A stretch of DNA of 64,000 nucleotides. Origin: Pocillopora damicornis. Taxonomy: Eukaryota. The notes beneath the pieces were generated by a model, which saw only the letters and a program-made list of their open reading frames with translations, made no database searches and had not been told where the DNA came from. Made by a program: the position numbers and the translations under genes. Each line of letters opens with the position of its first letter. Position 1 is the first letter of the stretch. Location: contig NW_020845389.1 in assembly GCF_003704095.1 (NCBI RefSeq), positions 310,001-374,000 on the forward strand, in the 5' to 3' direction. Below, piece after piece: positions 1,688-39,000 of the stretch.

Positions 1688-4600
1688 ATTGCGCATGCAG
1701 CCAAAACAGTACGAGTTATTTCAAGAGCGATTATTAAAGCCTTGTTAATGAGAGATGGAAAGGACGATAAGAAGATGTTTTTCACATCAAAATATTCCTT
1801 TATTTTGTAGTGCATGTCACGGTTGAGCAATAAAAAGGATGCTGACCCATTCTCTAAACGTAGTGTCATGACTGTACAGGGGCCGTATGACATTTAAATA
1901 GTAGTCCCACATAATTATAGGCAGTAGGGCTACCTTAAGTTAACTATCCTTACGCCCGATATCCGATTATGTTTTGACCCTTTGCACCCTAATATCAGTG
2001 TGCTTATACATTTCCTACGGTACTTACGAGGATGGTTTTTGAAAATGATCAGCTCCTTAGGAAGGCAATCAGTTTTTCTTTTTTATTTTCAAGACTCAGG
2101 AGTGTTAATGTAAGGAGAAAAGCTAGTCACCTTTAGGGGTTCAAACGTTAAAACACTATGTAAGGGTTTCGTCGTGCAGCAGGCCACTCGCATATCCCTA
2201 TATTGAAATTTCTCAAGAAGTGAGAGAAGTATTTTAAAAAGTAGTTGTAAAAAATTTTCTCTTTCTCCTTTTTTTTTTTTGCTTCCTAGAGAGTCCTCCT
2301 CCTCTCTCGGCAAACGAAAAAAATCGCAAAACACGTCTTGAAGGTCTCCAAAACCATGAATTAATTGCGACAAGCCTCGTTAAATTTACTTTGAAATTCT
2401 TTCTTATAAAATTTTGCCCTTTATTTTTTTTGCTTCAACTAGTAGGGTCTAGATGGCTGCATGCTGGTAAACTTCCTTTTTTCGTTTTTATGGACCTTTC
2501 TTAGCGTCGGTCCCTGAAAACTAGTTATCTTCTTCCATCAATGATATCCATTTATTCTAATAAATGTACCTCACGCTTGGTTAAGGCCACATAATGATAT
2601 TTCGAAACGTTTTCTGTGAAGCATAACATCACCTAGGGTAGAAATCACCGAAAAACTAAAATAATCTAGAGCTAAAGGGGACGGATTAAGGATGCACCTA
2701 GAAAGGGTTAACACGGTTTGGGGGCTGTGTCCAACTCACACAAAAAACGTAAGCTTAACATTTCAGGATACACAAGGCATGAAATAGCTGTTCCGATCCT
2801 CCTCACAGACCACGATATAACTGAGATATACGAAGCACGAATTCACTAGACGAGAAAGAATTTTTGTTCATATCAAATTGAGAGTTGAACTTTTAAATTT
2901 CATCAAATTATCGTTAAAAAATCTAACGCGTTAAAGAATACCAAAAATGCTTTCAACCTTGCTTGTGTTTGACACTGGACCAACAGACAAGAATGCAGTG
3001 ACTTTCCTGCAAAACATATTTCAAAAACTTGCTGTAAAACAAATACACTGAGTATTTCTCTCCTTAACCGAAAAAGAATTCGTGTAATGAGTGCTTGTGT
3101 TCTTGAGATCCACATACAAACATCTCTCTAACAGTGATTTCCTGACTCGAAAAAACGGCTGTCGAATTTCTCAGTCATGGTGGACGGACTACAGTGAATC
3201 ATTAGCAATACCTTTTCTGCACGTCCTCATTCATATACCTACTTCAGTTATTACAGTGGTAGTACATGGTAAAATTTATTAAACGAACGAACAAACAGAG
3301 TAGTTTTCTTTAAAATCACTTTTGATTTTCGAGAGGTAAGCATCAAGACACCTCAAAACATAGTTGAATCTATAAAATACAATACATATATTTTGTTAAA
3401 AAGCTTGAGGCTTCCTATGCGCATATTTAAACATATTTATGGAACCATGTTGTTCCATAGTCATTGCACATCTATATCTGAGCGTAAAATGTCTCTCAGC
3501 GAGCACAAATCTTGGACAATGGGAGGCCTTACTGGGAGATTAGGAACCAACAGCAGACATCTGAATTCTTTCATTTACAATTTAACAAGTTTGACACATT
3601 TAAAAAATAAAAAGAAACAAGCAAACTCTGTGTTTGACGAGTTGTTTCAATCGTGTCACCCTATTTCTTAGGTGATAAAAGTTTTTATCACATGAAAATC
3701 TGCTTAAGGTCAGAATTTCTTTTAACAGCTCCTTTAAAAATTGGCTTGAAGTGGAAAATAACTTTGGGATGGCGTAAAGAAGCATTAATCAGCTAGCCGA
3801 AGCGTGAAACTTTGATAAATAAACTGTGCCAGAATCATTGGAACTCATCAGGATTACCTGTAATTACCAAGTGAAGAATAAAAGCACAACCTGCCCAAAT
3901 ATTTACCTTAGCTTTTCTCCTACTAATTTTCCTCTGTAAAATGAGTTGTAATCTTAACTGATGGTTTAATTTCTGTTTCACTTTCCTTATATTAGTGGTT
4001 CTTTTCATAATTACGAGGTTTAATTTTCACTTAATCCTATCATGTTACAGGTGAAGTATTTGTTAAGCAGCATTTAACTTGTCTTTAAGGCCAAATGGCA
4101 AAATGTGCCTCGCATTTAAAAAAACACATTATCTTAAATCTGTTTGCAAACGGCCATGTAATAGAGTGTCTTTAACATTTGTAACTCATCATTTTCCCGC
4201 ACTTAGATTTTTACAAACAAAACTCTAACACTATCCATAATATTTAAAACGAGAATAAAATAGCACACAATAGACCCAAGTCAAGCGTGACAAAGTGGGC
4301 TTGACACATTACTATTTAAACCACTGCCCATTTTAGTGACACCAAACGAGTTATTTTGCAACCTAACGTCACCTGCTCGTTATGAAGTTGTTGACCAATC
4401 AGAACCCAACACCACCAACTTAGCCATTTAAAATTAATCACTTTCATGTCGGTAAATACTACTAGCGCATCAAAGTAGGTCACATTTTAACCGACTTTAC
4501 AGGATAGGAGAATCGGTGAGTCTTACATTTATATGTTGCATAGTTTGAAACCAAGATTTTCACAGATTCACTGAGAATTTTGATGGATGTTTCCTGTCAT

Positions 4601-4895
4601 AAAGACTAAGCTATTTAAGAGTAGTCACAACATTATTATTTTGTCTATGTTATCTTGTTGATTTTTTTTAACATGACCGCGGTTCCATTTGATCTATAAC
4701 ATGATCGAATTCCTGAGATCGATTACCCTAAATCAAACACTTTCAAAGTTCAAAATGCTCCTTGTCGACCTTTTTCTAATATTCTTTTAGAACTACATCG
4801 CTGTGACTCTTCTTCCAATATTTCTAACTTAAACTTATGAGAAATAGCTGAGGATACAGCCTTACTTCATCTATTTCATTATTATTTTAGGTAAG

Positions 4896-6360
4896 ATGAA
4901 TTCCAAGATAATATTTTTATTTGTTCTTGCCTTCGTCTGCTACGCACATGCTAGGTCGACAAAAGGTAAGTTCGCTAGTTTATTTTGTAAAGTTTGAATT
5001 AGGTCAAACGTGAAACATAATAGCTTTGATAAAAAACAATTAAGATGTTTATGTTAAGATAATAAATCTCTGCCAAACTTTTGCAAGTCAAAATCATCAG
5101 CTTGTGCAACAGATTTTCGAAGTAAGAACCACGAATGCCTAATATTGAGAAAAATTATTCCACCAATTTTCGTCAAACTGTGTAATCTATTTTAGACCTT
5201 TGTATGGGATGATTGTCTAAGAAAAGTGACTTACTTAACACAACGCACACCAGGTGGCATCAAATCGAAAAGAAAACCAGTTCTATCACCGAATACAATC
5301 CTAAATATAATTTAAGTTCGTTTCCTGCCAGTTTGAACTAAATTTTTCGACCCGATGATCTGAACCAATGAGAATTAATAATTTTAATGTAATTGGAACG
5401 ATTGATGATTGTCATATTTCAGGACAGGAAGCAGCTTAGGAAGAAGTTCATTAATCTCGGCAGAGTTTTACTTATCGAGTTTATGGCCATTATCCTTTCG
5501 TATCATGAACCTTTTTTTTTTTTCATCTTCTTCCGACGATTTAGACCGTAAAATTAGTTGATACCCGCCTGTCATAGCGAAATCATGTTAGCAGGTGGTA
5601 CTTTTCTCAACAGCTTCTTTGGATTGAATCAATTGATTTTCATTTGCCTTTCTACGACGAGGTAGCCTTTTACATTGCAACGTATTCAAGTGAGGAAGAT
5701 TTCACTTCCATTTACCCTTCCTATTCATTTACTCCTCTTAGTCATATGAATTCAATTTAAAATGGAAACCTAAGTTACTTTATTATTTTCTGGAATATGT
5801 GTTTACTAATAAGTGTGGATGCAGGTGGTCATTCAACTGTAGAGTGACTGGTGAGTTAAAAAGGCAGTGCTGTCACTGGAGTAGGGTTATAACGTTTCAC
5901 GATGCTTGGGCGAAAGGTGCAATATTTTTTCTTTTGCACTCTCTTTATTTCAACAGGCACCAAACGTTGTTGTCCCTGTTGTCCACCTCCTCCACCACCA
6001 CCACCACCAGTTCAACAGGTCGCTGGACCACAGGGACCACCCGGACAATCTGGATGTTCTGGTCCCCCAGGAGCTCCCGGATGCCCAGGATGGAAAGGAT
6101 GCCCAGGACCAGTCGGTCTCCCAGGACCTCCTGGTGCCCCTGGACCTCTCGGACCAATAGGACCAATGGGACCTAAAGGATGCGCTGGAAGCCCAGGCCT
6201 CCCCGGTTGCCCCGGACTCAAAGGATGCCCAGGATGTGCCGGTCCACCAGGACCTCCAGGAGCTCCTGGACCTCAGGGAGTTCCCGGAGCCGCTGCCCCA
6301 GTCCCATGCCCACCTCCACCACCTACTCCATGCTGCCCTGCTCCCGCATGCTGCAAGTAA
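4896..6360 (+). CDS. Gene 2: minicollagen-like protein (~157 aa), 30 Gly-X-Y triplets, CCPCC and CCPAPACC termini
   Basis: Exons 4896-4965 ([23 protein letters not shown]; phase-1 donor 4966) and 5957-6360. Product: ...STKGTKR|CCPCC-polyPro-(GXY)30[21 protein letters not shown]. Probable 5'UTR exon donor GTGAGT at 4516. AATAAA at 6384. Confidence 0.92.
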
Positions 6361-8770
6361 TTGGTTCCTTTATAGATTGAAGGAATAAAAACGATCGACA
6401 CGAACTTTTAATAAACTTCACTTTTTAAATCACAACAAAAACTGTCAGTGATTATTTTACCTCACGAGAACATTTCTAAAATAATGTCATCACTAGAAAG
6501 CTTAGTATACCTCAGCTACTACAAAATGAATAGAATACATGCGTGAGTTTCCTCCCCGACTGCCAGAGATAAATATTGAACATCGGCTAAATAGAGCTCA
6601 CGCTGCTTTTTCTTTCAAATCATATGTTATGATCCCTTTGAGTGCATACTTTAAGAGGAAAAGTCCACATTTTGCTCCAGAAAATTCAGTAATACTTATT
6701 TTCATTTACTTCGTGAGGCACAAGAAGACGCCAAAAGGGCACGGGAAACCACATCATTTGCACAAGTAAACCAAGAGAAGCAAAGAGTTAGACAATTACA
6801 TTAAAAAAAAAAGGTTTGATTGTTTTAAAGCTTTTTAATCATGAGATGAACAAGTATCACTTTTCTTTTCCTTTTTCGCGAGCATACACTCTTGGACTAA
6901 TTGGGTTTTTTGTTTTACCTTTCAGTGTTTTACTTAAAAAAAAAAACAGTTGAACAGCAAATGCATGCTGTAGAACTTGAATTCTGGGGAAAAAACACGG
7001 CAGCAAGGATGTAAAACACGATGTCTGAGTACAGTTAATAAACAAAGGAAAAATGAGACTTCGAGTTCTTCCTAAAATATATCGACATGTCGGCATTCAT
7101 CTGTCAAAAGACTCCAAATTTATGTTGCTCCTGGATTCATATGATAGTGAATCTCATTGCCTTCAATTTTCATGGCTCTTTGGCCTTTCAGTATCATTGT
7201 TGCAGGTATTCTGTCTCGCCTTAATGCATCTATCGTTTCACATTTCACCCATGTAAAATAATCTAAAAGGGCTCTTCCTTTCTAATAAAGCAGGCTAGGT
7301 TATAAATTTTCAAGTCAACTCCACCTGTGGGTTCCAATAATAAGGCACCTGTGAACTACACCTTAATCAACTCCGCTGTGCACAGAACCGGCTAAATCCT
7401 GTTACTTCAGGGTACCCAATTCACATCGCATAACTTGCATAGGAAAACTACACAGAACTAAGTATAAGGGAACCCTCTTTCTCTCATCATGTAACTCTCA
7501 AAATATTTCCTGTGTCACAATAAAGAAAAACCCAATTATATATTGATCAAGTGTTATTACTTATTAACTGGTCATTTTAATGAATTAAAATTCCTTTAAA
7601 AAACAACGCCGGTGTTAAGATCTGCACCACATTGCTTAGTAAACCCTGATTGAAAATACTCAACCGTAAGCCGTTGAAAAGCTGAAAATCGAATCCTTGA
7701 TAATGGACAGCATATAGTTTTCAACGCAAATTTCTGTGCACCCTACCCTCTTCCCCGCTCCCTTGCAATTGAAAGCCATCTTAGAATTTTCATAACCGTT
7801 CTTGCTCGAGTAAGTACCCTAAGTGTTAAATTCCAGAAGGAATTTAGAGTAAAGTGTTCGCGATTTTTCTGACCATTTCACCTTACCTTACGAGGGGCTC
7901 TAGTATTAACTTCAGCACTCCAATTTGGAATTTATTGTTACTCGGCGTTTAATGAAAAAATTATGGCTGGGAAATTTCCCAAAATCAGCCCTTTATGTAG
8001 GAGGAAATATTTTCTGGAGCATATCGAACAAAGGTTCTATCGGAAACTTTTCTATAACCCTTGCATGATTGGCTAAAAGAAAAAATCATGAATTTGCTAA
8101 ACTAAACAGTTTGAATATTTCATCGTCTGTAATTGATCCACTGGTTGATTCACTTGAAAATATGTTCAGTGCATTAGCTCCTATGGCAACCAATATATTT
8201 CATCCTAAGTATGAACTCTTGAGCCAATCAAATTTTGATAACTGTTTTGGTAATGGCCATTACGTAATCAAATAAAAGCAACAGCAAATACTTTTAACTC
8301 ACCGAAGAAGTAGTAATTTAAGTCAGTGGTAGAGTCAAAGTCAGTTGTTATACAGCCTTAGCAGGAAAAAGAAAGCTGGTGAGTATAGTCTTTTTAATTT
8401 TATCTCCTTAAGTTTCTTTTTCAATTCATTTCATCTATAATCTTCTGTAGCATCGAAGAGAAGTATTCGGGACATATTTTTTTTAATTGAAGTTTGCGAT
8501 TTTCGAAACTACCTAACATGCTTATTTTACTTTCCACAACACCGATCTATAATAAATTCGATTTCCTTTCATAGTTTACTAAACTTGAACCACTTTCCAA
8601 AATACTTTGAATTCCTTTTCTTCGCTGTTTGTTACTCTTTTAATTATTTGCCTTCCTTGTTATTTTCTCGTGACCACCGAGTCTGAGAACCTATTCTAAG
8701 GACCCTTTTCGATTTAAAGAGGGGTTATATCCAATACAATCAGCTAATGGTTTTCTTGTTTGCAGGTAAG

Positions 8771-9858
8771 ATGAATTGCAATTTACTGACTGTTTTACTC
8801 GTCGCATTAGTGGGCTGTGCACAGGCAAGATCGACAAAAAGTAAGAGTTCCCATTCTGACTGTGTGAGTGTTTAACGTGTCAACCATGTCGTTGAAAGAG
8901 AACCACTGATCAAAAAAATTCCAGTCACTAGACAGGGACTGGAGAGTAACAATTATCAAAAGGGAGAATAACCTTGAAAGCTTTCAAAACCGACATTGAG
9001 CTTCTCGACATATTTACAGAGCTACATGCCGTAATAGAAATTTATTACTTCTCGTCAAAACTATGTGATGACGTTGGCAGGTGCCAATGTCGAATTTCCT
9101 TTTTATTCTTAATATGTTCCTCCTGATTTTAAACCAAAGTTTTAAAATTTGGTTTGAAACATTTTTTTACACTGGAATGAGAACGATCCTAATGATCACA
9201 TTCCAAGCTCTCACTTTTTCAAATTTAGTCATAAAAATATATAAATTACTTGGAATAAAATCATTATGAAATTGTTCAAGTTTCAACTATTTTATAATGC
9301 ATCTGGCCTATCCTGTCCAATTTTCCTTCATAAACAACCCGTTATTAGGTACTTTCCCCGTCGAGGATAAATTTCTGCTGAAAATAAGATTATCTTTACC
9401 AAATCTATCAATCGCTGCCATGTATCAAGCGAAAAGCTAATTCTTTAAACGATATTTCATCAGATGCAAAAAGCTGTTGCCCGTGTTGCCCACCTCCTCC
9501 ACCGCCAATGATGCCACAGATACCGGCGCAACAGGGATGTGGTGAGCCCCCACGAGGTGTCGGATGTGCGCCACCCTTGCAAGCTCCCTGCCCTCCTGGA
9601 CCACCGATAGGAATGCCCCCAGCAGCACCCCCGTGCATGCCAATGGCACAACCAATGGCACTACCACCATTAACTATGGGACAAATTGGTTGTCCTGAGA
9701 GTCCTCGTCAAGGATGTATTGGTCTCCCTCCTGCATCACCCCCATGCTCACCTCCACTTCGTGCACCACCAGCACCATGCCCACCTCCTCGAGCCCCTCC
9801 TTCTTCAAAATGCTGCCCTGCCCCGGCATGCTGCAAAAAATCGCACAAATCACATTAA
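8771..9858 (+). CDS. Gene 3: paralog of gene 2 without a Gly-X-Y register; Pro/Cys-rich secreted protein (~154 aa)
   Basis: Exons 8771-8840 (MNCNLLTVLLVALVGCAQARSTK; donor 8841) and 9464-9858. It shares with gene 2 the 'AG GTAAG ATG AAT T' start context, the 70-nt exon, ARSTK, and the [11 protein letters not shown] and CCPAPACCK ends. The frame is open throughout. Confidence 0.85.
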
Positions 9859-11459: not shown

Positions 11460-12486
11460 ATGGACTTTAAAATTATAGTTTTGGTGGTGCTGATATCTGT
11501 GGTTTATGTCTCCGAAGGGAAACCATATGAAGAATTCCGTAAGTTGCTTTGTCTTTTTAAAAGAATCATCTTTTAGTCCAAGTTTAAGTCGTGAAGTACC
11601 AGCAGTATCTAAAATCTCTTTATTCCACGATGCATCACCTATCAAAAACGTTTTCAGAACGAACTTAAAATTACCTGTCAACTCTAGTAAATCTCACACT
11701 CAACCAGTAGTTTGAAATTGACGAAAGTAGGAAAGAAAATTTATGTAAAATCAGAAATTGGTATTTGTAAAATCTTCAATATTTTGGTAACACAACACTA
11801 TAATAACGAGCAAAGATGCTCCCATTTCCCTATGAAGTTCCATAAGTTATATTGATACTTGACAAAGACACCTGTTTGTAGTAAGCATCGTAGAGAAAGC
11901 ATTTTCAACTTTTCATTCACAGAGATAACTATATTAAAGTGATCAGAGTTTTCCCTATATGTTCCCGTTAGTTCCTAACTGCGAGAACAGTCTTCCTCAT
12001 AAAAAGTGTCGCCAAAATCCGCAAAAGAAGAAAGCTGCTTTCGAATCAAACTTACTTTTCTCTTTTGCTCCACTTATACTTACGCTGGGTTTTTTTATTA
12101 AATCCGGGGGAGAAATCATTATATCTTTGTTCATAAAAATTTAGTTCTATACCATAAAACTAATAAACTTTTATTGCATTTTTTCAGTCAACAAGGTCTT
12201 AAGAAGTAATCCACTGCCTTGTTCTCGGTCCTGTTGTGAAAAGTGTTGCACAAACGTTTGTAGAAGAGACTGTATATTTTCGTGTTGTGCAGCCCGTCCA
12301 CTCGGCCCATACCCACCTCCCCCTGCACCGCCTCCCCCATACCCAGCCCCAACACCACAGCTCATCCCCGGACCGCCAGGATTCGCAGGAATTTGTGGAT
12401 TGCCAGGACCTCATGGACCTAGAGGATGCCCCGGCTGCGTTGGACCACCAGGACCACCCGGACCTCCGGGACCCCCGGGACGCTAA
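11460..12486 (+). CDS. Gene 4: minicollagen-like protein (~125 aa) with an expanded 9-Cys N-terminal domain, 12 Gly-X-Y and no C-terminal CRD
   Basis: Exons 11460-11538 (MDFKIIVLVVLISVVYVSEGKPYEEF; donor GTAAGT 11539) and 12188-12486 (LNKVLRSNPLPCSRSCCEKCCTNVCRRDCIFSCC-Pro-rich-GPPGFAGICGLPGPHGPRGCPGCV(GPP)4GR*). The coding frame is absent from the ORF track because this exon has no in-frame start codon near its 5' end. Confidence 0.88.
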
Positions 12487-14193: not shown

Positions 14194-15272
14194 ATGGATT
14201 ATCGGTTGGCTGTACTATTCACCCTGGGGCTAGCCTACACCGCCTCGTCGATGCACAGTAAGTTCAAATACAGTTTGGTATACTCTTATCACCAAACCCA
14301 AATACCAAACCAGTAACTTCAATTGATAGAATAAAAAGAAAAATAAGCTAGAAACTTAGATTTAAATAATGAGATGGCGTGGAAGCCCAATGTAAATCTC
14401 TCGGACTTGCTTTGAGCTTACTCGGTTTTACCAAAATTCTTCGCTGATTTTTTTTCCATCTTTAAAAAGATCTATCTATACAACAGGGCTACAACCAACA
14501 CAATGAATTGCCTCGAGATAGCGGTTTCAGAGAATATTTATCGCTCACTTCCTCTATATCTAGAAAAGTTTGCGTTCTGAGGTCCAGGCACACAAGAGCC
14601 TCGAATTCTGAAGAGTCATTAGCATGACCGAGCTTGCATATATCCACAATTTTGACGGCTGGCTCATCAAAAACCTATCCAAATTTATTCCTTTTATAAA
14701 ACGATTGGATGGCGAAGGCACTAACTGACTGACCGACAGACTGGCTGACTGATTGGCATCTTCCTTAAAAGACCTTACCAACTAACCGATTGACTGAATG
14801 AAAAATTAATCATCTCACTTTTTGACTGACCGACTAATTGACTGACTGACTGACAGAATAGAAGTCGAACTTTAAAAACGACCCTAGATATTATAGCAAT
14901 CGAACGTGTATGAGCTAAATGGAATGAAATGCTTGTTTCATAGCAAAGCGTGCAGCCTTCCCATGCGGAGCTGGCTGTCTTCCGCAGTGTGCCCCAAACT
15001 GCCTTGCAGACTGCTGCGGTAGTCCTCCACCAGCACCACCCGACCCACCTCTCCCAGCTGTGTCAGACATGATGAAGCCTCAGCCAGCACCTATCGTTGG
15101 ACCACAGGGACATCCTGGGTCACAGGGTTCCCCAGGAGTGATGGGACCTGTAGGACCCCCGGGAATTGGCGGAGCCCCCGGACCTCCGGGACCACCCGGA
15201 CCACCAGGACCTCCTGCACCCCCTGCTCCACCTGCTCCTGCGTGTTGTGCGGTGCCGCCCCCAGGGAAGTAA
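14194..15272 (+). CDS. Gene 5: minicollagen (~130 aa) with a canonical N-terminal CRD, 13 Gly-X-Y and a C-terminal CRD reduced to CC
   Basis: Exons 14194-14257 ([21 protein letters not shown]; donor GTAAGT 14258) and 14944-15272 (TKR|[22 protein letters not shown]-polyPro-(GXY)13[18 protein letters not shown]). Probable 5'UTR donor at 13943. Confidence 0.92.
14720..14855. repeat. Degenerate (GACT)n microsatellite in the gene 5 intron
   Basis: Repeated CTGA/CCGA/CTAA tetramers, e.g. TGACTGACTGACTGACAGA. Confidence 0.7.
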
Positions 15273-16832: not shown

Positions 16833-18101
16833 ATGAATATCCGGATTCTGCTGTTGATTGCCATTGGACTGGTACTCTGTGCCGCTGATCCAATCAAGAG
16901 TAAGTAAAAATGCTTATCAGCATATCTTATTTCCTTCTCCATAGCAAAGCCCTTTCGACTCTAAAGAGAGTGCATCTTTTATTAAATGGTTTAGCCGTAA
17001 AATTTAATAGAAAATCTAGAACGACAAACCCACCCTGATGAATTTTGCTTATTATTTGTGCGTAAGAAGTGGGTATAATTAAATCTACACAAGGCCTTTC
17101 TAAAATCCAAAGATATCACTACATCTGTTTTGATAACCTGCATTTAGACAATTTTGCAAAATTCCAAGAGATAGAGACTTGAGGCAGCTATTACAATTTT
17201 TTTTCCGCCAAAATGACAATTGTCCCCAAAATTCAGGTTGCTACAAGAAAACCTCATACTCAGATTTGTGCAGTGTTTGGTGGAAAATGTGAGGTTTTCC
17301 GATTAAAGAGAATGAGTGACTGCCGTTTAGTCAATTTGAATTGGGTAAAGAATGCTTAAAATAAGCAATATAAATGTAGTCGCAATATGTGGCCTCGTAG
17401 TTCCATTGAAGGCATCAGTGAAGATTGAAAGTGTTTTGATTGCTTTTCCAATTACTGGACCATTTTCTTCCTCACTCTTCTGCTATTATTTCTAACCCTC
17501 CACTGTTTTCTCAAGAAAATTATTTTTCTTTTAACAACAGAAATATGCTACAAATGAAAAAATCTGAATATGTCACTTGTTGTTATATCCAGGAAATATG
17601 TCTTTGATTAGGCGAAAAGGCGCACACAAAACCTCTGGATGTAAGGAACAAAGTCACCTATGATCTAAGATGGCGGTATTAAGACCGGATCAAGAGGAAC
17701 TTGAATAATTATCTAGAACTACCTCGAAGTGATGAACTACCTACTTCCTTCACAATCTCAATATATCATGCAGAAAACATAAAATGAAAGCTGACAAACT
17801 TAAAAACCGCGAGCAAGGAGGATTGTCTTGATGAGACAATAAATTTAATGACAGCTGGTGAGATCTTGAGAATTCAAAGTAGTTAGAAAGCTAAACGTTG
17901 ATTTTGCTTGACATTTCAGCCAAAAGGGATGCGCAATACAATTACATGTATCCTGGTTCCGAAGGATCCCAAGGCCCCCAAGGCCCTATTGGTAACGCGG
18001 GAAGACGAGGACCAACCGGAGATCCCGGACCACCAGGACCACCCGGACCTCCTGGACCACCCGGACCACCCGCTCCACCAGGCCCCGCCGGAAGAAGATA
18101 A
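16833..18101 (+). CDS. Gene 6: very short collagen (~82 aa precursor) with a cysteine-free mature peptide
   Basis: Exons 16833-16899 ([22 protein letters not shown]; donor GTAAGT 16900) and 17920-18101 (TKR|DAQYNYMYP-(GXY)13-APP-GPA-GRR*). Confidence 0.88.
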
Positions 18102-20825: not shown

Positions 20826-23510
20826 ATGGGGATAAGATTTTTCGTATTTGTTGTCCTTTTGGGACTAACACTTTCTACATTAGACGCCAAGTCTTTAAAA
20901 GGTAAGAGAATCTTTTCTAAAAATATTTGGTATTTTATATTCATCAGTTGATATCATAGAAAGTTTTCACAAATCTCTGAAATATCTTCTTTCCTCTCCT
21001 GAGAGCAAATAATTCTTTAAATACACTTCACCGTGTGCAAAGTGTGCAATCTAAACTTGAACCACTTTTGAAGGCCACGGTTGGATTAACTAAACAATTT
21101 AATATTTTATCGAATGCAATGTTTCCCTCTTAATCAACTTAATAGGAGGGGTTTTTCAGCGTTAATCTCTTCCCGATACTGCTATGAAATTTAACTGTAA
21201 TTTAGTGCGTAACACTGTGACAGTTTGAGAAAAATTAGGTTGAATCAAGCTACCACAACAAAACGTAAAACCATCTTAGCTACAACCATTTTAACTCCTT
21301 AAATTTGTGAACTGTTGAAGAAGAATACTTAAAACGAAGAATTTAAATTTGCATAGTTTCCGACTTTTCACTTTAGCTAAGTTTAGTTAAGCGGTTTGAT
21401 CTCTTCTCGAGTATCTGATGATCGGGGTAAAAACACACGTGAGAAGACTGTCTGTGATCTGCGTCATAATTGACTTTATGTGTAAGGTTACTTGATACTC
21501 ACAAAACTCTTCACACAATGGCTATCACAATTTCTCAGAAATGATTAGTGAAAGAGTCAAGTTATTTAAGGGAGTTAGGTATAAAAGTTCTTTTATACCG
21601 CTGACCTTCTTTTAATTTTAAATTTTTTTTTCTTCTCTCCCCTACAAAAGGACACAAGAAATCCAAGCACGGTAAGCTCCTTAAAGCTCTCATTCATACG
21701 GGGCCCGAGAAAGGTAATCAATGAATCGCTCATTTGCATGCCCATGTTTCAACTGAAATTTGCATGTGGAACGGACACCGTATGTAATGGCTTGTGCAGA
21801 TTTGCTATGGTTAACGTTACTAAGAAAAGATTAGAACTGCAATTCCCTAATTCCGCACTTACTTTAGACTGCTGAAGCTTGGAAGTGGTTCCAAAAGGTA
21901 CGGTGATGCTTCCGAAATTTAAAAATGAACATGACAATAATTTGAACACCTCACAAGATCACGAATGCACCTCTCAATCTTGATTGAAACGATTAAAGGC
22001 AGCCGAAACACTGAATTTAATGTTAGAAAAACCTCCTAGATCATGTTTGCTTTACTATGCCGTACACATATACGGTCAAAGAAACCAAGGTTACACTACT
22101 TTCTGCAAGAGCGGCTTCCTTGGGAAAATCGCGATAGTTTCTGGCTTTTTTCGTTGCTTGTCAGAGAAAGGCCGTGCAAAATGTTCTGATTTCCTCTTAA
22201 TTTGTCATAGACGAAGACACAAAGAAGAATGATGAACCTGCTGCCGAAGAAGCCTCAGGAAGTGCTGCTGGTAAGTGGGTAGCATGTGCACATTTAGGGC
22301 TTTAGCCTGTTAAGACGTTTTTTACATGTAGGCAACATACACACACACTTGAGGATAGCATCCGTGATCTGAAAATGGTCTCCACCAACACATTTTCGCC
22401 TAGAATCCAGACCTGGCGAGCGTGTCTTTGCTCATCCGCCATTGACTTGGAAAAATAAAACTCAAAACAAAGTTTGATAGGAAATAAAGCAATACTCAAT
22501 GCATCTGTCATATCTGCCTTTACTCCTCGCGGACTATTCGGGTTACGTTGTGTCAATTATCAAGCTCAAAACTTTTTCTCGTTCAAACATAATTATAGGT
22601 GCATCCGCAGCCGGAAGTGGAGAAGAATCCGGCTCCACCGAAGAAGGTATGCTTGTTTTATTTCTTGGAATATTGTCCAGATTACTTTGAGCTTTTTTGC
22701 CATAAATCACTCAAGGTAATTTGATAACCTCTATGTGGCAAAGCGTCAATTCTAGTTTGTCATAAGAGACAAAAACATGAAAGAGATTAAATTTCTAGCA
22801 GAGCGTTCGAGTAGACTTTAGGGTACTCTTGGCGTGTAAAGGGGATTCGAGTTTTTTTGTTTCTTTGATTCGAGGTTTTTGTTTTCCTTACTAAGAAGCA
22901 AACAAAGTGTTAATTATTGAAACGAAAAACTTAGACTGCTTAATTAGTTTTGCAATCAGAGGGAGTAATATACAACACTGTTACTATTTCGGCTGGTGCC
23001 TTATTGACATTCAGTTCACATTTCATTACTGCAGTAGGTGTTTTCTGTCCACAGCCTTTTGCACAGATTTAATTTCGTTTTCCTTATTCTGTTCTGACAG
23101 CTCCACCAACTGAAGGTGAAGGACCACCTCCTCTCGTAGTCCCCACCCCTGCCCCTGAACCCCGAATCTGCCCTGGCACCTGTCCCCAAGTGTGCGCACC
23201 AGCCTGTATGGAGAACTGTTGTCAAACACCCATGCCCCCACCCTGCACACCACCTGGTCCTTGCCCTGCTCCCTTGCCGGTACCAATGCCTGCTCCTTGT
23301 CCCTCAGTTTGTGCACCAATGAATCTTCCCTCATGTTGCCAAGCTCCACCCCCTCCACCCCCTCCCCCACCCCCACCTCCACCACCAGCCGGTCCCCCAG
23401 TTGTTCTTTGTGGAACTACCTGTGTTGATGGATGCGGACCGACTTGCCCACCACAATGCTGCAAGCACCACAAGAGAGGACAACTAAAGAGAACCTCGCA
23501 CAAACACTGA
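20826..23510 (+). CDS. Gene 7 isoform A: collagen-free polyproline/3-CRD protein with an acidic Ser-Gly segment (~204 aa)
   Basis: Exons 20826-20901 (MGIRFFVFVVLLGLTLSTLDAKSLK), 21651-21671 (GHKKSKH), 22211-22270 (DEDTKKNDEPAAEEASGSAA), 22599-22646 (GASAAGSGEESGSTEE) and 23101-23510 (CPGTCPQVCAPACMENCC; CPSVCAPMNLPSCC; polyPro; CGTTCVDGCGPTCPPQCC; basic tail). All introns are phase-1 GT-AG and the total length is divisible by 3. Confidence 0.82.
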
Positions 23511-36000: not shown

Positions 36001-39000
36001 AGTGTTAAAGAGCTCATTAAAGTGAGGCCTAAATGGTAACAAAACATATAGTTCATAGAGAACTGAGTATCAAAGGTTTTCCTTCTCTTCAATATTTTTC
36101 ATTATTACCGAGCAAAACATTTTTAAAAATTATTTGAAAAAGTAAAACAATTTAGCCCCATGAGAGATTTGAACTCTCGACCCCTGGTTTACGAGACCAG
36201 TGCTCTAACCACTGAGCTAACGAGGCCATCGATGACAATGAAGTAGAAATAAATTTGATCGACTGTGGCTCGGGGGGGTTTGTTACCGACAAGTTTTACT
36301 TGAGTGTGATTTTTTGGCGAGGAGGGGGTAGTGGAATTGACCATATAATAGATACTCAATGGTAGCTTATAGTATTCAGCCGTGTTAAACGACTCGCCAA
36401 GTTGATTGGAGATGTACTTGAATATAAGAGTTCGCAACTGAATTCTCCTCATAGAATGTACAGATAAAATTGAGCACTGCTCCGCTCTCGCCAAGTCTGG
36501 AGTTTGCAAGACATCACCAAAGGCCATGCATCAACATTGTGCGAAAACCTGTAACTTATGCGGTAAGTCATAGGTTATAATAGGTGATGATTGTAAAACT
36601 AAAAACTAGATAATTGTTGAGTTAAAAAGCCCCGACTGAAGTGGTTACTGCTGACGTAAATTCTCGGAAGGAGCTACAATTTTATCTTCTATTTCCAAGT
36701 AATGAGTGGATATAAGTCTATTGAAAAAAAAACTTTTACTGTGACAATGCGTTAAAAAAAATTACTTGCCGAAGATTTCTTTTCTGCCGCATATTGATGA
36801 GTTTTTCATTCGTTGTCTCTTTGTATGCCTTCATTTACCGGGTTTATACTACTTTCCGTCTTTCCGCACTGAGGGCGAGGAATTCTTGACAACACTTTAT
36901 AGAGGGAATCATTTATGTAGGCTAGAAATCATGGGCTAACCTATGGCTCTCTCTGTTTTAAAGAGGACAATTTCTTTGATGCCACACCCCACATCGCCAT
37001 CGCGCTCAAGAAAGAACCTGAAAAACTCTTAAAGAAACAGCCAGTTGCCCCGGTCCTAAAAAAGACTTATCACAAATCTTTAAAGGATAAAGTAGTGCCA
37101 GAGAAACCAAAAACTGAACAGTCTACGAGGAAGCATGAATTAGCAGGAGAGGGATTTATTCCAGCTGATACGATCAAAATCCTTCACTCTATAGAGCCAC
37201 TCCTGTCACAGCAATCCAAAGGGGTTATGAAATTCCATGAAAATGACTTGAGCCCAGAAAACGAGAAGATCCGCGATGCACAGAAGCTGCTAGAGTATGT
37301 AAAAGTTCTCAACCCACCGAAGAAGATAGCCATCCTTGAAGCAAAGGTATCTTTAGCAAACGACAAGAAAAAGTCTACTACTAAGAAACCAAAAAAGATT
37401 GTCACACACGAAGATAAAGACAAAGAACAAGAGGACAGGGAACAAAAAGACGAGGTGAAAAAAGAAGAGAAGTCAAAACCCAACCACGCACCCAAATCGA
37501 AAGTTGCAAAGAAGAAGCTTAAAGTTAAGGGAACACCGCTGACAAGTTTATCAAAGACAGTGACTTACAAGAATCACAAGTACAAGATCACACCAGTCGT
37601 GGACTGGGAGCGAATCTCTAAAATGCTGGAAAGTCTTGGCTACAAGGCTGTTCATATTGTTGGCGTCAAGGACAAAAGCATCCACAAAGATCTTACGGAA
37701 CATCTTAAAAAGCACGGGGTTGACAATATTTTGTCACACAAGATAAAAGGAAAGGCCGCTGCGGAAACGTTTGTGTCAGCTGTTCACCGAGAAAAATCTT
37801 GGCATAATGGTAAGGTTTTTTAATGATGAAGGTTGTTTATTCTTTAGTCCTGTTTTTGCTATTTTGATGGGGGGTCTGTCGAAAAAGGGGGACTGGTAGG
37901 TACTCTCAACACTTTTAGACCAACAAGTCACCTGGAGATGAAGGATGAAGGTTCAAACTTTAAACTTTGGAAGTATTAATGAATTCAATCTCAACTTATA
38001 ATTGTCGGTTAATTATAACTGATATTATTTCTGTTAAGGTAACAATGAACTGATAAAATGTCCATCTGTACAAATTTAATCCCCCACTACCTGATGTCTG
38101 TCGCTTTGTTCTCGAAATTGTATCATTTGCGAGATCATTCGGAATTTGAAGTGCAAATCAGTTTTCATGGTGGCTTCTTCTGGTATAAAACATGATCAAA
38201 CACTAAGAGTGTTTATTTTGCAGACGAATATTTTAAGACACACTGCCATCCAAAGTGCCTCACGAACTGCGTATCCTCTTGCATGCCGGGATGTTGCCGC
38301 GAGCACGACAAGGTTTCAGTCAAGACAGGTCTCGCCAAACATTGCCACGCATCCTGTTTGACGAACTGCCTGCCATCCTGCGGTAGCGGCTGCTGCTCGG
38401 CTGACGAGGAGCGAAAGAGGGGCCACCACTTCTTACATTATCAGAGGATAAAAGATTACCACAGGGCTAAGGATGAAGCGGCTGCCAAGCAGCACGACCA
38501 GCCCAAAGAAGACACTAAAAAGCAGGAAGACAAAGTGAATCCCAAATGCCATCCGCAGTGTAAAGAAACTTGTATTTCGTCCTGTGGCAAAGGCTGCTGC
38601 ACAGACGAAGGCGAGAGGTTGAGAGACGAGAATGAGAGAAAGATGAAAGATCAACAGGAAAAATATAGGAAGGACAAACAAAAGAAGCTTCTGGAAATGT
38701 ACAAACCTCAGCCCAGGCTCTGCCCGGCGCCGTGTCCTCAGGTAAATGAGCTGAAAATATTTTTCAGCGGTATCAAAATTGAAATTAAAAGATTTCAAAA
38801 GTCTTTAATTGTTTCCTGATATAAAGGGAACAAATAAGATTTAGAATCTCGATTCCTGGTTTACAGAATTAGTAGTTCATCCAGTGAGCTTTCATAGCGA
38901 CACCGCTGTGACAATCTTCTTATGAAAATTTATATGGAGGTAAAACTCTGAGAAAAATATTCTACCTGTTGAAAAGAATAAGGAACCCCTATCNNNNNNN

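Follow-up and report, generated by a model that had tools for sequence, protein, structure and literature searches.

Gene 3 on the forward strand of Pocillopora damicornis contig NW_020845389.1 is spliced and transcribed and is a tandem duplicate of gene 2, a short collagen gene; in the reading that we favour, it has lost its collagen domain and encodes what is likely a secreted, single-chain, proline-rich linker that becomes disulfide-bonded into the polymer of the stinging capsule. The gene has an intact reading frame, its cysteine-bearing ends are constrained, its proline content has been retained and no Gly-X-Y run in it exceeds two triplets. Both genes lie in the analysed stretch of 64,000 nucleotides (positions 310,001 to 374,000 of the contig), referred to here as the window, and their features are listed in Table 1.

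The walls of cnidae are composed of collagen rods and collagen-free proteins with cysteine-bearing ends, and the origin of the latter usually cannot be traced because their sequences are of low complexity. Here, parent and derivative lie 2.4 kb apart and carry identical end modules, which makes them a natural paired control with and without a triple helix and allows a direct materials test of a trimeric rod against a monomeric spacer. Gene 3 is moreover a dated case in which a structural gene has passed from one class to another.

Table 1. Position and description of the features of genes 2 and 3 in the window.
Feature	Position	Strand	Description
Gene 2, first coding exon	4891..4965	+	CDS from 4896 (70 nt); 87-91% amino acid identity to the outgroup exon
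Gene 2, last exon	5957..6360	+	KR, CCPCC, P9, 30 Gly-X-Y, CCPAPACCK; Pfam Collagen E 2e-16
Gene 3, non-coding 5' exon	8313..8378	+	Start approximate; run X8 contig joins 8377->8765 (cut +1, GT..AG)
Gene 3, first coding exon	8766..8840	+	CDS 8771-8840, 70 nt; predicted signal peptide MNCNLLTVLLVALVGCAQA + RSTK
Gene 3, intron	8841..9463	+	623 nt, GT..AG, phase 1; joint 8840->9464
Gene 3, last coding exon	9464..9858	+	Starts AKS-CCPCC-P6; transcript contigs reach 9858-9882
Gene 3, N-terminal CCPCC + PPPPPP	9475..9507	+	11/11 amino acids as in gene 2 and 4/4 aligned outgroup loci
Gene 3, middle	9508..9810	+	Rich in Pro/Ala/Met/Gln/Cys, without Gly-X-Y register; weak residual triplet periodicity
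Gene 3, C-terminal CCPAPACC	9811..9834	+	8/8 amino acids as in gene 2 and outgroups
Gene 3, candidate polyadenylation signal AATAAA	9899..9904	+	Sequence match

Structure and expression of gene 3

The coding sequence of gene 3 (8771-8840 and 9464-9858) comprises 154 codons without a stop or frameshift, as had been noticed in an earlier reading of the DNA made from its letters alone (the sequence-only reading). The exon counted there as the first is the second, because a non-coding exon lies upstream of it; the joint in the run X8 contig has a short side of 65 letters, the gene 3 splice is placed at 8378->8766, and a GTGAG donor is found at a like position in gene 2 and the outgroup corals. The predicted signal peptide, judged by hydropathy, has a hydrophobic core with a Kyte-Doolittle peak of 3.2 and an AQA site, and in the propeptide the KR pair has become KS, again in agreement with the sequence-only reading.

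Polyproline flanks are present on both sides, as P6 after CCPCC and as PPAPCPPPRAPP before the C-terminal motif, and the middle between them contains 38% Pro, 9% Gly and 7% Gln. From the first Cys to the final Lys there are 10 Gly, which are distributed over all three frames, and the longest Gly-X-Y run is two triplets (GQIGCP, GCIGLP) as opposed to 30 in gene 2, so that the lost register and its relics were correctly recognised from the letters. A six-residue C-terminal extension, KSHKSH, is present where gene 2 stops. In Pfam, gene 3 has no match at E<=1 whereas gene 2 matches Collagen, and the canonical CRD pattern CX3CX3CX3CX3CC has 0 matches in either gene. AlphaFold, run on the single sequence of gene 3, gave no usable model (pLDDT 50.6, pTM 0.14).

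Part of the window is contained in 19 of the 22 listed sequencing runs. The predicted splice of gene 3, and with it the transcription that the sequence-only reading had presupposed, was recovered in six of the eight runs examined, from five studies, in bulk assembled contigs of which some are only presumed to represent RNA. Runs X2, X8 and X9 bridge the intron, and in runs X13, X14 and X1 exon letters form a loose end before 9464; no joint was seen in run X3, and run X16 is a continuous genomic contig.

Paralogy of genes 2 and 3

Gene 3 is the tandem sister of gene 2 and has the same exon layout. Gene 2 encodes 157 amino acids (4896-4965 and 5957-6360) with an uninterrupted stretch of Gly-X-Y triplets, and its splice is not among the joints listed from the run contigs. 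The resemblances on which the duplicate had been recognised from the letters hold: the start context and the length of the coding part of the first coding exon (70 nt in both, 8771-8840 and 4896-4965), the span from the first Cys to the final Lys (121 amino acids in gene 3 and 130 in gene 2) and the common CCPAPACCK end. The first coding exons are identical at 46 of 70 nt and are each other's best match among the five cluster genes. Throughout the 234-Mb genome, the codon pattern for CCPAPACC occurs twice, in genes 2 and 3 (control 0), and that for CCPCCP three times, the third occurrence lying antisense to a poly-Gln stretch, in a frame closed by stops; in frame, the end motifs CCPCC and CCPAPACC are found genome-wide only in genes 2 and 3. 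Each mature span contains 16 Cys, and about four to five of the eight internal ones stand at matching positions.

Origin and age of the duplicate

A codon-pattern scan of metagenomes returned 69 loci, eight of which are coral orthologues of gene 2 (L008, L010, L020, L022, L025, L033, L034 and L041, with two near-identical pairs), all of them with an intact collagen domain; the other 61, chance matches from outside corals, were not considered further. Gene 2 shares 79-83% identity with the orthologues whose sequences were listed. Just upstream of the window lies one more paralogue (L076), which has 31 Gly-X-Y triplets. Since the eight orthologues and the upstream paralogue are all collagenous, collagen is very likely the ancestral condition, and gene 3 probably descends from a collagen-bearing state.

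At codons for which genes 2 and 3 have the residue of an outgroup, the codon of gene 3 is that of gene 2 alone more often than that of the outgroup alone (11 and 6, 14 and 6, 13 and 4, 14 and 7 for four non-independent outgroups), which favours, without proving, a duplication after the split from the outgroup corals. In synonymous difference, gene 2 is as far from gene 3 (21/52) as from the outgroups (20-21/52), and the duplicate is therefore old.

No gene-3-like exon was found in the outgroup loci, which extend at most about 3.6 kb past the gene 2 stop (less in L010, L020 and L025), and this absence is weak because the last exon of gene 3 begins 3.1 kb past the gene 2 stop here. Protein searches and the coral loci yielded no gene 3 orthologue beyond near-identical alleles. 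The peptide of exon 2 retrieved one of 240 candidates (P0003, 97% identical, a cluster of one member), a second matching representative being rejected as an unrelated 983-aa repeat protein that matches only CPPPP, and the best match in the ESM Atlas (0.75) lay below the lead threshold. Simulated gene 3 orthologues down to 50% identity would have scored (100/100); a gene 2 query of the same protein collection gave 50 collagens of generic type, among which the real gene 2 orthologues (local E about 1e-48) were missing. The missing gene 3 orthologues are thus uninformative about its range, since the collection also missed the known orthologues of gene 2. Glycine-depleted forms were found in 0/8 of the coral hits, which hints weakly at a restriction of gene 3 to its lineage.

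Proposed role and comparison with known systems

The scenario that we propose begins with a duplication from a collagen-bearing ancestor long ago, roughly at or somewhat after the split from the outgroup corals. Redundancy would then have released the glycine positions. Substitutions, short indels that preserve the frame and duplications within the middle would have altered this region, with selection keeping the frame, the proline content and the terminal cysteines. The signal peptide would direct the product into the secretory route of the developing cnidocyte. Two Gly-X-Y triplets are too few for a triple helix, and the protein would be a monomeric, extended chain of the polyproline-II or disordered type. 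Collagen prolyl 4-hydroxylase acts on X-Pro-Gly, for which gene 3 contains one site as opposed to 16 in gene 2, so that the chain would offer a single Pro-Gly hydroxylation site. The end motifs, identical to those of gene 2, and the eight spaced internal Cys may permit co-polymerisation with gene-2-type trimers, in which gene 3 would act as a two-ended flexible spacer and not as a six-ended rod. An elastic partner, which the sequence-only reading had also considered, is not favoured, because the Gly and Pro contents are closer to those of a polyproline-type chain.

A localisation in the capsule is putative and is suggested by the cluster context, genes 2 and 3 being situated in a plus-strand cluster of minicollagen-like and CRD genes, together with data from Nematostella. 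There, the expression of minicollagen and minicollagen-like genes is reported to be restricted to cnidocytes; the genes have neighbouring identifiers (NV2.11801-11820), and some of them are spirocyte-specific (PMC12549020; 10.64898/2026.06.23.733813). Capsule proteins are described as polymerising via terminal Cys modules (PMC6910907; PMC4863159); the chemistry studied is that of the canonical CRD, whereas genes 2 and 3 are without it.

A functional secreted Pro/Cys protein outside the stinging capsule, belonging to the mucus, the cuticle, the skeletal organic matrix or another gland cell, would be a rather unlikely alternative. The lost KR site would fit it, as would the upstream region of gene 3, which aligns poorly to a block conserved between gene 2 and the outgroups. 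Parallels exist in NV2.363, a Nematostella minicollagen-like gene reported to mark a mucous gland state in addition to cnidocytes (PMC12549020), and in an Acropora collagen-lectin with an interrupted repeat, whose expression is described as unlike that of its intact relatives (PMC2629781). However, gene 3 lies inside a cnida-type gene cluster, and its end motifs are invariant with those of gene 2, which suggests a shared binding chemistry.

By definition, gene 3 is not a minicollagen, as three defining features are missing: the central Gly-X-Y domain (about 14-27 repeats in minicollagens), the KR site and the canonical CRD, for which the pattern CX3CX3CX3CX3CC is given (PMC3145756). The minicollagens (Hydra NCol, NvNcol-1/3/4/5/6/0) and the minicollagen-like proteins of Nematostella share with the genes described here the signal peptide, the short propeptide, Pro-rich flanks, terminal Cys clusters and the clustering of the genes. 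Gene 2 is of minicollagen build, with its 30 triplets and KR, while gene 3 has neither collagen domain nor KR, and the ends of both are reduced to CCPCC and CCPAPACC in comparison with the minicollagen CRD. The exact motifs are absent from the searchable supplements of PMC7981951, PMC4195985 and PMC12549020, and for this reason no Nematostella gene was assigned as the orthologue of gene 2. A precedent for the loss of KR is reported for the myxozoan Ncol-5 (PMC7981951). Surveys that demand Gly-X-Y repeats and CRDs for minicollagens, as in 10.64898/2026.06.16.732747, would discard genes of this kind.

The closest functional model for gene 3, likened by its described build and not by sequence, is Hydra CPP-1, which is reported to have a Pro-rich middle without a triple helix and Cys modules at its flanks, and to be disulfide-linked into the capsule wall (PMC6910907). 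CPP-1 carries a canonical N-CRD at both ends (PMC6910907) and a continuous polyproline domain, whereas gene 3 has no canonical CRD. The middle of gene 3 is without a triple-helix motif and is Pro-rich with interruptions. By this analogy, gene 3 most likely works like CPP-1. Hydra Cnidoin likewise has a collagen-free middle between Cys modules, but its middle is described as silk-like and elastic (PMC6910907), in contrast to the Pro-rich, Gly-poor middle of gene 3, which is also without canonical CRDs. NvNcol-7 of Nematostella contains MPP/SPPSPP interruptions that resemble degenerated collagen triplets (PMC12549020); in this protein of about 1000 residues, mostly collagen and with canonical CRDs, the degeneration is local, whereas in gene 3 it is complete. 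The literature searched, outside which most subscription papers lie, yielded no minicollagen paralogue that has lost its collagen and whose collagen parent can be recognised.

Collagen-free capsule proteins are already known, and gene 3 is not a new kind of system. The suggestion that such proteins can arise from minicollagens stands in so far as gene 3 represents one route to a collagen-free Pro/Cys protein; that CPP-1 or Cnidoin arose in this way does not follow. It is a speculative and rather doubtful extension that, in a single coral lineage, selection made a strut of trimeric collagen into a disulfide-bonded monomeric spacer by which the compliance of one type of cnida (perhaps the spirocyst) is tuned, and that duplication followed by glycine loss is the general origin of the collagen-free Pro/Cys genes of capsule clusters. 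Were this route general, partly collagenous stages would be expected in sister genera.

Fate of the collagen region

The middle of gene 3 can be read as the trace of a collagen domain over which substitutions, indels and local duplications have accumulated. An ungapped diagonal between it and the gene 2 collagen, over an alignment segment chosen by eye, has 20 of 56 identities, as reached in 14 of 2000 shuffles. In both genes, Gly-Cys pairs are found 42 residues apart, and the colinear blocks PP..GC..P..AP and MG..GC..SP occur at the same spacing with several identical codons. These blocks, a weak residual Gly/Pro triplet periodicity (p=0.023) and the similarity in length and Cys number to gene 2 all argue against an unlikely alternative of the same function, in which the collagen block dropped out and Pro-rich sequence expanded by slippage took its place, without any residue-by-residue loss of collagen. 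Such a replacement would agree with the unbiased tests of descent from the gene 2 collagen, which are not significant (183/1000, 154/2000 and 170/2000 shuffles; p about 0.08-0.18), with the significant internal repeat IG[ML]PPA[AS]PPC[MS]P (16/1000) and with the clustering of allelic indels at 9662-9680. A 10-nt direct repeat is also present at 9640/9652, and pieces of the gene 1 collagen align to the middle as well as or better than those of gene 2.

The sequence-only reading had called gene 3 an intermediate. This is overstated, since no triple helix is left and internal duplication has rebuilt part of the middle; the gene represents an end state. The residue-level alignment of the middle is unreliable, and so is dN/dS for this core.

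Selection and polymorphism

A scripted codon model was applied to a hand-anchored alignment of gene 2, gene 3, L034 and L020 (replaced by L008 for the signal); L041 was omitted from the fit, and L010, L022, L025 and L033 from the alignment. On the gene 3 branch, omega was 0.47 over 110 codons, against 0.13 in the background (p=0.0005) and below 1 (p=0.008), and for the 31 terminal codons it was 0.07 (below 1, p=0.029). In the 56-codon core (0.60) and the signal (0.76) it could not be distinguished from 1; the expected constraint is supported for the gene overall. The dS on this branch is about 0.45-0.82, and the synonymous rate is faster than that of gene 2.

All nine shared terminal Cys have been kept in gene 3. 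In neutral simulations from gene 2, limited to substitutions, the frame remained open in 1% of cases at 0.45 substitutions per site and all nine Cys were kept in 0/5000, while at 0.3-0.8 substitutions per site the values were 3.2-0.2% and at most 0.14%, respectively. Proline occupies 19 of the 56 core codons compared with a neutral mean of 6-7 (0/1500 simulations), and the 38% Pro of gene 3 compares with about 12% predicted under neutral decay, in simulations without slippage, which in CCA-rich DNA could contribute to the excess. The Cys count lies within the neutral range (228-270 of 1500), and selection against glycine was not detected, as its loss (4/19 kept) is also within that range (94-107 of 1500).

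Among the runs examined, two of two distinct coding indels are in frame, compared with none of six non-coding ones, two of which come from depth-2 contigs (Fisher p=0.036); the exon 2 indels of gene 3 are net -6 in X2 and X16 and +9 in X13. Nine of the listed SNVs of gene 3 were classified as four synonymous and five non-synonymous; three create Pro and 0/9 alter a Cys. Polymorphism does not separate the two genes on this point, because the listed SNVs of gene 2 are likewise two synonymous and five non-synonymous. In one X2 contig (depth 6), 9830 is joined to 10943 at a shared CATG, which is not a splice site. The junction, possibly a 1.1-kb deletion allele or an assembly artefact, would remove one or two Cys from the end of the C-terminal motif; X16, which shares the net -6 indel of X2, is intact at 9830.

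The possibly truncating X2 allele, the common non-synonymous SNVs, the omega values of core and signal and the faster synonymous rate would be expected of a nearly neutral, dispensable duplicate that acts as passive filler under weak selection against frameshifts and is slowly being lost. This explanation is improbable in view of the terminal omega and of a Pro content and Cys number held over a large dS. A young transcribed pseudogene or an assembly artefact, suggested by the failure to find an annotated or named protein record, is largely refuted already and very improbable, as the frame is intact over a large dS, independent runs have contigs that agree with exon 2 at 95% or more, and a single DNA contig covers this exon in full. 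Gene 3 is a real, expressed and constrained gene, and the objections that the sequence-only reading had raised against itself (a missing transcript, a young pseudogene, an overall dN/dS near 1) do not apply.

Neighbouring genes

The gene cluster ranges from collagen-only to CRD-only members. The upstream paralogue (L076:6075-7872) consists of KR-CC-P8, its collagen triplets and CCG, with reduced Cys ends; GCPGWKG is common to it and gene 2, the CCG end to it and gene 1, and a candidate signal exon lies at 6075. Gene 6 (window 16833-18101), with a signal, KR, 13 Gly-X-Y triplets and no Cys in the last exon, is the mirror image of gene 3, its collagen being kept and the Cys modules absent. In genes 4 and 5 (window 11460-12486 and 14194-15272), a single CRD-like motif at the N-terminus is combined with 12-13 triplets; gene 4 terminates right after the collagen, and gene 5 closes with a bare CC. 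At 23073-62127 of the window there are eight frames that lack collagen and have canonical CRD patterns; three of these contain 30-46% Pro (23073-23510, 54701-55102 and 59367-60347), and the others are acidic or His/Lys-rich.

Among the coral orthologues of gene 2, L025 matches it over most of the collagen and ends in a different tail, NGCCPVYQKKK, and in L010 two whole triplets are missing with the register kept. A non-coding block upstream of gene 2 (window 4277-4489), with the words CCAATC and GTAAATA, is 72-78% conserved in the outgroup corals; look-alike words of it occur in the poorly aligning region upstream of gene 3. The window further contains a tRNA-Thr(CGT) call on the minus strand (36153-36227) and a 122-base N gap (38994-39115).
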